Origin: Escherichia coli | GTDB taxonomy: Bacteria > Pseudomonadota > Gammaproteobacteria > Enterobacterales > Enterobacteriaceae | Reading direction: 5' to 3' (one strand) | Assembly: GCF_024700885.2 (NCBI RefSeq) | Contig: NZ_CP117016.1 | Length of the DNA stretch: 64,000 nucleotides | Shown here: piece after piece, positions 20,901 to 22,040 of the stretch | Layout: each line of letters begins with the position of its first letter | Position numbering within the stretch: position 1 is the stretch's first letter | Made by a program: the position numbers and the translations under genes | The notes under the pieces: generated by a model | Database searches by the model: none | The model's input: only the letters and a program-made list of their open reading frames with translations | What the model was told of the DNA's origin: nothing

Positions 20901-21578
20901 CCGCATCACCTGCACCAGCCATACCGTCTGCCGGGGCAGCAGCATGATGAGGAATCAGGACTGTACTATAACCGGAACCGGTACTATGACCCGCTACAGG
21001 GGAGGTATATCACCCAGGATCCAATCGGGCTAAGAGGTGAATGGAATCTGTATAAATATCCATTAAACCCTGTTCGGTTTATAGATTCTTTGGGTTTAAA
21101 ATTCCATGTTAACGGTGATCCAAGTGATTTTAATCAGGCTGTTGAGTATTTAAAACAAGATTCACGAATGAAAGAAGCTATAGATTTTTTATCAAGCTCT
21201 GAAGAAACCATAAAGATAGAGTATATTGATGAAACCGACGTTAGATTTGACCCGGATAAAATGACTATATATTGGAATGGTAAGGCGGCTTTATTTTGTT
21301 CAACTGATTTAAAATCGAAATCACAATCACCTGCATTAGGTTTGGGGCATGAGTTTGCTCATGCGCACTTATATCTTATTGATAAGGATGGTTATATGGG
21401 GCTTGTGAGACGTGCGGATGAACAATATAAAAATAAAGAAGAGGCGAGAGTTATCACTTTAATTGAACAGCATGCGGCGAAAACTTTAGGTGAGTGTACC
21501 AGAACAGCATATAATGGAGTGTATTATCGTGTGAATACACCAACGCAGACGGCAACAATAAATGGCACGCCAGAATAG
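17931..21578 (+). CDS. rhs: Rhs-family T6SS effector (YD-repeat shell) with C-terminal toxin domain carrying an HExxH motif
   Basis: 1215 aa; N-terminal [17 protein letters not shown] (PAAR-like), many YD repeats, core end DPIGL...DSLGL, then a low-GC tail (~21099-21575) containing [10 protein letters not shown]. About 203 codons shorter than the N-terminal region of the neighbouring Rhs copy. Confidence 0.9.
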
Positions 21579-21590
21579 TGATATTTTTTT

Positions 21591-22040
21591 ATGATGAAAT
21601 ATTTGATGGTTTTATTGTCTCTATTTTCTGCTTCGGTATTGGGGATGGGGCGAGTGAATGAATTGTGTGGAATAGATAGTGTGAAAACGATAGAAATAAT
21701 TAATCTTCCAGCATATGTTACCACCTTAACCCCGCTTAGCAAGGAAGGTCTCAAGAGAATATACAAACATAAAGTGGTGGTGAATGGGGTTAGCGATTTT
21801 TATGCTGGTGAGATAATTGATTTATTGCAAATGAAGTATTTCAGGAAGGAGGAGAATAACGATATAAGATGGGGGGTTGACATTGTTTCGAATAAAAATA
21901 ATAAATGTGAAATTTATTTTGATGGTTTTGGTGAATGTGGAAGTGTGAATGGCATTAACGTATGTTTTGAAAAAAATGAAATGATAGATTGGATTAAAAA
22001 AGAAATCCCTTTTCTGTCGCAAGAAATAGGTGGGCTTTAA
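21591..22040 (+). CDS. Putative cognate immunity protein of the Rhs1 toxin; predicted exported
   Basis: 149 aa, starts 13 nt after the Rhs1 stop; N-terminal signal-peptide-like segment MMKYLMVLLSLFSASVLG; low GC like the toxin tail. Confidence 0.55.
   Translation: MMKYLMVLLSLFSASVLGMGRVNELCGIDSVKTIEIINLPAYVTTLTPLSKEGLKRIYKHKVVVNGVSDFYAGEIIDLLQMKYFRKEENNDIRWGVDIVSNKNNKCEIYFDGFGECGSVNGINVCFEKNEMIDWIKKEIPFLSQEIGGL

Follow-up and report, generated by a model that had tools for sequence, protein, structure and literature searches.

A Peptidase_M91 Toxin Tail on an Escherichia coli Rhs Protein and Its Predicted Exported Immunity Partner

Introduction

Rhs1, a rearrangement hotspot (Rhs) protein of Escherichia coli, ends in a variable tail that contains an HExxH motif and is followed directly by a gene for a small protein of 149 amino acids (aa); this pair, encoded in a 64,000-nucleotide (nt) stretch of DNA (RefSeq assembly GCF_024700885.2, contig NZ_CP117016.1; hereafter the window), is the subject of the present analysis. 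The closest described proteins are NleD of enteropathogenic and enterohemorrhagic E. coli (EPEC/EHEC), HopH1 of Pseudomonas syringae, and the polymorphic-toxin versions of these enzymes, which, like the Rhs1 tail, are HExxH zincins of ~150–170 aa with a downstream acidic motif. The catalogue of Zhang et al. (2012) lists "Tox-HopH1" with RHS repeats and with type VI secretion systems (T6SS) among other routes, and names no immunity family for it (PMC3482391). The fold of these Peptidase_M91 (M91) enzymes has been published as botulinum-light-chain-like (PMC6367388). NleD and HopH1 are type III effectors that act in the eukaryotic cytosol and lack an immunity partner, whereas the Rhs1 tail represents a divergent subfamily with a conserved, exported partner.

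The nearest counterpart in architecture comes from Salmonella Dublin, in which Salmonella pathogenicity island 19 (SPI-19) encodes a PAAR-RHS-Peptidase_M91 protein (SED_RS06335) and a small protein (SED_RS06340); in competition assays, deletion of the module lowered survival 2.4-fold relative to the wild type, which supports an antibacterial effector/immunity pair (PMC8867033; review PMC12288458). Like the Rhs1 pair, this module joins an Rhs protein, an M91 tail, and a small open reading frame (ORF) with a hydrophobic N-terminus, and a primer sequence shows the same Rhs start; the likeness is one of architecture and Rhs start, and the partners differ in length (110 aa against 149 aa). The authors guessed at peptidoglycan hydrolysis and described the partner as having "1 TM" (one transmembrane segment; PMC8867033). 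A preprint on Shiga toxin-producing E. coli (STEC) also describes an E. coli Rhs-Peptidase_M91 protein followed by an ORF with no assigned role, and assumes cytoplasmic action.

For a periplasmic zinc enzyme with an exported immunity protein, the working model is VgrG2b and PA0261 of P. aeruginosa. The VgrG2b metallopeptidase (PDB 6H56) is delivered by the T6SS, contains HExxH, and is toxic only in the periplasm; its immunity protein PA0261 is exported, contains cysteines, and needs its signal peptide, and relatives of PA0261 are lipoproteins or are anchored by a transmembrane segment (PMC6899460). A remark that would place tails of this kind in the VgrG2b family (PMC8867033) was rejected for Rhs1, whose tail has no sequence similarity or close fold similarity to PDB 6H56.

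Two further groups of zincins invite comparison. The botulinum and tetanus light chains (M27) are ~430 aa long and share 12–21% sequence identity with the Rhs1 tail, a stripped core of 159 aa that lacks their substrate-gripping insertions and their translocation and receptor domains; the mode of delivery also differs. Rhs-MPTase4 of STEC (Tox-MPTase4, PF15640) is likewise an Rhs protein of E. coli T6SS-1 with a zincin tail, reported to damage the envelope; neither the Rhs1 tail nor any of 18 relatives matched PF15640, which places them in a different zincin clade.

Rhs tails of the Tox-HopH1/M91 type that are followed by an immunity gene are thus already known, and the locus introduces no new principle. 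The new element is an immunity family that is large, uncatalogued, and for the most part exported, and that on sequence grounds offers an argument for periplasmic action of these M91 tails. We propose, with a probability of about 0.62, that the Rhs1 tail is an M91 zinc endopeptidase cassette and that the 149-aa product is its cognate, Sec-exported periplasmic immunity protein. M91 enzymes, whose nearest structural relatives are the botulinum light chains, are known for cutting signalling proteins of the host with precision; in Rhs1 such an enzyme is mounted on a bacterial Rhs weapon.

Toxin Domain

Rhs1 (17931–21578, + strand, from the ORF list; 1215 codons) has the organization of a polymorphic toxin: a shell of RHS/YD repeats, annotated "RHS element core protein"; a core end of the form DPIGL-x17-DSLGL (21018–21098, + strand, with DPIGL at 21018–21032 and DSLGL at 21084–21098), read directly off the sequence; and then a tail of differing composition. 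The DPxGL-type core-end motif is the C-terminal autoproteolytic site that frees Rhs toxin tails (PMC8636562), and DPIGL...DSLGL in Rhs1 stands at the position of this motif. GC content (the fraction of G and C) falls from 0.59–0.67 in the Rhs core to 0.33–0.38 over 21050–22100, and is 0.63 at the following Rhs gene. A core end followed by a low-GC variable tail had been noted in the preliminary description of this DNA and is confirmed, the tail comprising 159 aa from 21099 onward.

Profiles, alignment, a structural model, and a fold search identify this toxin domain (21099–21575, + strand; Rhs1 residues 1057–1215) as a divergent zincin within Peptidase_M91 (PF14891; Tox-HopH1 in PMC3482391); the preliminary description, which recognised no named toxin family in the tail, is corrected on this point. 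HEFAH (21348–21362, + strand; H1140, E1141, and H1144 of Rhs1, or H84, E85, and H88 in tail numbering) provides the predicted zinc-binding histidines and catalytic glutamate, lies in helix 78–94 of the model, and is the sole HExxH in Rhs1; with the tail's own composition, the chance expectation of such a motif is 0.0125 in the tail and 0.087 in the whole protein.

Twenty-five relatives of the tail emerged from a search of 5.8 billion proteins. Rhs tails from E. coli and Shigella are 53–73% identical to that of Rhs1 and metagenomic proteins 33–43%; two relatives from Hafnia alvei (43–45%) are named "M91 family zinc metallopeptidase" and carry PF14891. Eighteen relatives were aligned (alignment A1), and the invariant positions are a 14-residue block with H84/E85/H88, EExRVI, E123, AA..L, E132, and R135; HEFAH, which had already been read as a zincin motif, is thus conserved in 18/18. 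When the relatives were scanned individually against PF14891, 9/18 matched at E <= 1e-3 and 17/18 at E <= 0.1, with a best value of 6.6e-9.

The tail displays the motifs described for M91: HExxH with a downstream acidic motif (given as "HExxH, [DE]N" in PMC3482391), a glutamate as candidate ligand, and R-x-x-Y/H. The acidic motif in Rhs1 is E1170-E1171 (21438–21443, + strand, within EExRVI), invariant and placed at the start of helix 113–129; most relatives have Y-[DE]-N ahead of EE, where the Rhs1 tail has YKN. By likeness to botulinum E261 (PMC6367388), this glutamate pair may contain the third zinc ligand. R1191-T-A-Y1194 (21501–21512, + strand) is a candidate counterpart of botulinum R363-x-x-Y366; its arginine is invariant, and RxxY is RxxH in most relatives. 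The spacing H88-(26)-E115, E123-(11)-R135, and R135-x-x-Y138 in the tail appears to parallel H227...E261 and E350...R363-x-x-Y366 of the botulinum light chain, an equivalence drawn from spacing and from PMC6367388.

An AlphaFold model of the tail built on alignment A1 was of high quality (predicted local distance difference test score [pLDDT] 95, predicted template modelling score [pTM] 0.90). It contains a five-stranded sheet, an active-site helix (78–94) with HExxH, and a next helix that begins at E114/E115. The fold is that of a zincin, closest to the botulinum light chains, and all fold matches are zinc peptidases; in a Foldseek search of AFDB50, many RHS proteins (from Salmonella, Prevotella, Bacteroides, Chryseobacterium, and others) proved to carry this domain at their C-termini. 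The suggestion of a metallopeptidase-like toxin accordingly gains support from PF14891 through the relatives, from the model, and from Foldseek, and we infer that the tail is a zinc endopeptidase with protease activity. No NCBIfam model matched the tail, and a PDB sequence search with the tail and with the tail profile gave no meaningful match, the hits being an antifreeze protein (E 2.4) and a periplasmic protein (E 0.9). Weak matches of the tail to NolX and to NCBIfam PRK05325 were set aside as chance.

Downstream Protein and Its Family

The candidate immunity protein (21591–22040, + strand; 149 aa, N-terminus MMKYLMVLLSLFSASVLG) was delimited from the ORF and a family profile. Its ORF lies directly downstream of Rhs1, as described earlier, and starts 12 nt past the Rhs1 TAG stop; the 13 nt given before is the count from stop to ATG. 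A Sec signal peptide is predicted at 21591–21650 (+ strand; MMK followed by YLMVLLSLFSASVLGMG, with cleavage after G18 or G20) from the family N-terminal pattern and from simple rule checks on sequence, which were the basis of all signal-peptide calls. The rules are satisfied by an n-region of charge +1 (MMK), a 17-residue uncharged stretch, and small residues at −3/−1 (VLG/M or GMG/R), and the protein has no further hydrophobic segment. The positive n-region would leave the domain on the periplasmic side, whether or not the peptide is cleaved. Four cysteines are present in the mature protein; C26 and C106 are common to the E. coli and Hafnia proteins and are compatible with a periplasmic disulfide.

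A word-based search found relatives of this protein only in E. coli and Shigella (74–97% identity), some of them called "RHS element protein dsORF-h1", a name absent from the searchable literature; a word-indexed search with the immunity profile gave no additional named proteins. When a profile of the mature region (A3) was run on 1.84 billion representatives, 447 matched at E <= 1e-3, of which 128 reached E <= 1e-10. Family members are mostly 150–175 aa long, with the domain beginning at residue 35–50, and the family alignment (A4) is marked by the motifs VEIL.IP..ILTR..TPE.LE, DLRWG, and YFD..G..G...G..V.F. Among the best 149 representatives, a hydrophobic N-terminal segment ahead of the domain is found in 107 and a lipobox in a further 14 (121/149); of the rest, 10 have a short N-terminus and 18 show neither feature. 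This pattern supports the export proposed for the downstream protein. None of 33 members matched Pfam at E <= 1e-3, and neither the 149-aa protein nor 10 diverse members matched NCBIfam. Judged by these searches, the immunity family is large, mostly exported, and uncatalogued in Pfam and NCBIfam.

A match of the 149-aa protein to DUF7584 (E 0.017), present in 1/33 relatives, was dismissed as chance. One protein found with the profile, P0056 (960 aa), has a lipoprotein-like N-terminus and 11 separate stretches that match the immunity profile; these may represent immunity-like domains in tandem.

Linkage of Toxin and Partner

Loci fetched for the two families (L numbers) were scanned with local hidden Markov models of A1 (toxin) and A4 (immunity). 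The order toxin-then-immunity, with the genes adjacent or overlapping, occurs in E. coli in both the window type and the RhsH type (L001, L008, L012, L062, and L063). The same order is found in Hafnia (L007), in metagenomic loci (L005/L006 and L011), in an NCBI assembly (L065/L066), in Omnitrophica (L019), and in Eremiobacterota (L018, L030, L035, L039, and L056). Several unrelated lineages therefore have a family member immediately behind an M91 tail, which bears out the proposal of a cognate partner.

The two families also diverge together. The Hafnia partner (L007, 6522–6986) is 34% identical to the 149-aa protein by local alignment, and the partner in a metagenomic locus (L005, 5663–6121) is 25% identical, a relationship that is weak by pairwise BLASTP alone (E 0.01). 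Toxin and immunity identities run in parallel across pairs (72%/84%, 44%/34%, 45%/25%, 39%/41%, and 42%/29%), so that in the six linked pairs compared the gene directly downstream varies jointly with the tail. Signal peptides are predicted for all partners linked to an Rhs protein; the L005 toxin, a short Rhs-tip protein, itself begins with one.

In L064 an immunity homologue (2370–2825), 54% identical to the E. coli protein, follows a small membrane ORF and an Rhs protein whose glycine-rich tail is unrelated; it is therefore an orphan immunity gene. Orphan immunity copies are usual in Rhs arrays. A CRISPR-associated gene and a helicase gene adjoin this homologue.

N-Terminal Deletion in Rhs1 and Distribution in E. 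coli

Rhs1 of the window has suffered an in-frame N-terminal loss of ~200 aa, which the preliminary description overlooked. The intact form is the 1420-aa Rhs of strain GF43, to which Rhs1 is 96% identical over residues 23–1215; the first 34 residues are identical, and residues 35 to ~234 of the intact form are missing, the same gap being seen against the second Rhs (Rhs2) of the window. In both comparisons the deletion junction, GAPTGV / TDGAG, falls between Rhs1 residues 34 and 35 (18027–18038, + strand; junction near 18032/18033). The deleted segment includes DUF6531 (GF43 residues 46–123) and the rest of the PAAR-like N-terminus. Rhs1 consequently lacks the intact PAAR-like/DUF6531 N-terminus for VgrG loading, and its loading on VgrG and the sealing of its Rhs shell are doubtful. 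Identical junctions occur in 63/5426 complete E. coli genomes. The reading frame is open through all 1215 codons, and the catalytic motifs of the tail are undamaged.

The intact 1420-aa allele of strain GF43 follows vgrG, and its tail differs at one residue. In that strain (L063, 3043–14193) vgrG, the intact Rhs-M91 gene, the immunity gene, and a degenerate second Rhs gene lie at another chromosomal site, between yncH and ydcC, which indicates that the cassette moves or recombines among Rhs loci.

The tail and immunity region is present at a coverage of at least 80% in 1017/5426 complete E. coli genomes. Any match at all was found in 1082 genomes, 38 of them at >= 99% identity and ~980 at ~87% nucleotide identity (RhsH type, "dsORF-h1"). 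Enterotoxigenic E. coli (ETEC) H10407 (L008, 8380–9483) has a truncated Rhs fragment with an RhsH-type tail beside IS66 sequences; its HEFAH has become HGFAH, with loss of the catalytic glutamate, and the downstream immunity gene is intact. YJ1 has a remnant, with the T6SS deleted.

Proposed Mechanism and Alternatives

To the family placement, fold, catalytic motifs, toxin-then-small-protein order, and export signals of the small-protein family, all shown by the analysis, the proposal adds protease activity, a periplasmic site, a substrate, and inhibition by binding, each of which we infer. An intact Rhs of this type would be carried on the VgrG spike of the adjacent T6SS; the tail would be cut at DPxGL...DSLGL within the Rhs shell and freed into the periplasm of a neighbouring cell. 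There, HExxH and the downstream glutamate would bind zinc, and the enzyme would cut a specific envelope protein. Sister cells would be protected by the exported immunity protein, which would bind the protease in the periplasm. A specific envelope protein is the expected substrate, since M91, M27, NleC, and GtgA each cleave proteins in a substrate-specific manner. The exported antidote points to a target in the bacterial envelope rather than in a host, or in the cytoplasm as recent surveys assume, and so counts against the cytoplasmic and anti-eukaryotic assumptions made for enterobacterial Rhs-M91 proteins.

A broader and more tentative reading, to which we give somewhat less than even odds, is that a whole clade of NleD/botulinum-like M91 proteases consists of periplasm-acting antibacterial weapons, marked by the exported immunity family, which comprises 447 or more clusters at 50% identity. 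Each M91 enzyme would then cut one specific essential envelope protein. If so, knowledge of the substrate would disclose a new weak spot of the Gram-negative envelope, and the botulinum-type protease core would have been used first in bacterial warfare. With a name for the immunity family, many "hypothetical" genes would be better annotated, and M91 toxins directed at bacteria would be flagged.

Several observations weigh against the proposed pair. The Rhs1 tail itself matches PF14891 below threshold (E = 0.086 and 0.056), over tail residues 47–115 and model positions 65–132 of 176, so its membership of M91 rests on intermediates and on fold. The mature immunity protein was modelled with low confidence (pLDDT 58). 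The Prokaryotic Genome Annotation Pipeline (PGAP) labels the identical gene of E. coli strain 1190 a pseudogene, "missing N-terminus". Every M91 enzyme characterised biochemically is a type III effector that works inside host cells (PMC3482391; PMC9846239), and Tox-HopH1 is counted among the anti-eukaryotic effectors in a Salmonella survey of 2026. In a scan of a genome collection, ~40/50 loci with a QSPALGLGH toxin had no detectable downstream immunity homologue; that pattern, the only one used, captures one subfamily, mostly from Eremiobacterota, and the scan is not a census of M91 tails. The partnerless loci are mostly standalone proteins of ~150 aa in Eremiobacterota, one of them followed by a convergent gene for a multi-pass membrane protein. 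In L018, L030, and L035, finally, both partners lack a signal peptide, and the family is not tied to the periplasm everywhere.

These last three loci each contain a standalone toxin homologue followed by an immunity-family homologue (L018, ~3900–4830; L030, ~2540–3440; L035, ~3890–4790), and by sequence they look like cytoplasmic protease-inhibitor pairs. Together with the partnerless loci, they indicate that the protease-inhibitor pair predates its periplasmic use in Enterobacterales and is more versatile than that use.

The alternative that survives best, and that we consider close to an even proposition, is that the module is a relic in this strain: Rhs1 would be neither mounted nor sealed, no toxin would be delivered, and the immunity gene alone would matter, against kin with the intact allele. 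It disputes only whether the module still fires here, not the identity of its parts. The loss of ~200 residues relative to GF43, which takes away DUF6531 and leaves just the first 34 aa of the PAAR-like N-terminus, speaks for it, as do the pseudogene call in strain 1190, the frameshifts in the neighbouring Rhs2, and the many E. coli that retain just a C-terminal remnant and the immunity gene, such as ETEC H10407 (HGFAH) and YJ1. An open frame of 1215 codons with intact motifs, and a junction that persists in 63 genomes, speak against it. This strain probably does not launch the toxin and keeps only the protective half of the module; it would be protected against relatives with the intact toxin and unable to fire the toxin itself.

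That the toxin works within the target cell's cytoplasm, the N-terminus of the small protein being an inward-facing anchor or irrelevant, appears improbable. The signal-less pairs in L018, L030, and L035 agree with such a site, as do the ~15–19% of representatives without a hydrophobic N-terminus, the assumption in the STEC preprint, and the single transmembrane segment predicted for the Salmonella Dublin partner. A positive n-region, an h-region of 11–17 residues, and small residues at −3/−1, however, put the domain outside the membrane whether cleaved or not; 14 relatives have a lipobox, and all Rhs-linked partners are exported.

It is quite improbable that the tail is an anti-eukaryotic effector that, like NleD and HopH1, cuts host signalling proteins and that the downstream ORF is not an immunity gene. 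The characterised enzymes and the survey grouping cited above favour this alternative, and many standalone relatives have no immunity gene; but the small-protein family is tightly linked to the toxin and diverges with it over distant taxa, orphan immunity copies occur in Rhs arrays (L064), and the Salmonella Dublin M91 module acts as an antibacterial effector/immunity pair. Finally, an incidental HExxH in a tail that is no metal-dependent hydrolase is scarcely credible despite the sub-threshold Pfam match, given that the motif and its partner residues are invariant in 18 relatives down to 32% identity and that the model sets them on canonical zincin helices in a fold whose matches are all zinc peptidases.

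Genomic Setting

The window is colinear with the chromosome of E. coli strain 1190, in which the T6SS locus lies beside yafV-ivy-fadE in the order tssB, tssC, tssE, tssF, tssG, hcp, vgrG, Rhs, a small ORF, a degenerate Rhs, two small ORFs, and an ISAs1 transposase. The tss core genes, hcp, and vgrG thus stand directly upstream of the Rhs gene in strain 1190, and the window has matching ORFs, with hcp at 15028–15546 and vgrG at 15756–17864 upstream of Rhs1.

Rhs2, the second Rhs gene, is split into three ORFs (22117–23562, 23585–24304, and 24356–26065), and PGAP labels it as frameshifted with an internal stop; its tail is short, low in GC, and unlike that of Rhs1. Two small ORFs lie 3′ of Rhs2 (26099–26746). 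The product of the second (26348–26746; 132 aa, N-terminus MEMLGNILVIIISMIIISC) begins with a sequence that resembles a lipoprotein signal, and could be an exported immunity protein too, paired with the Rhs2 tail. An intact transposase gene of the ISAs1 family (H-repeat; 27027–28163) ends the Rhs array just ahead of yafV.

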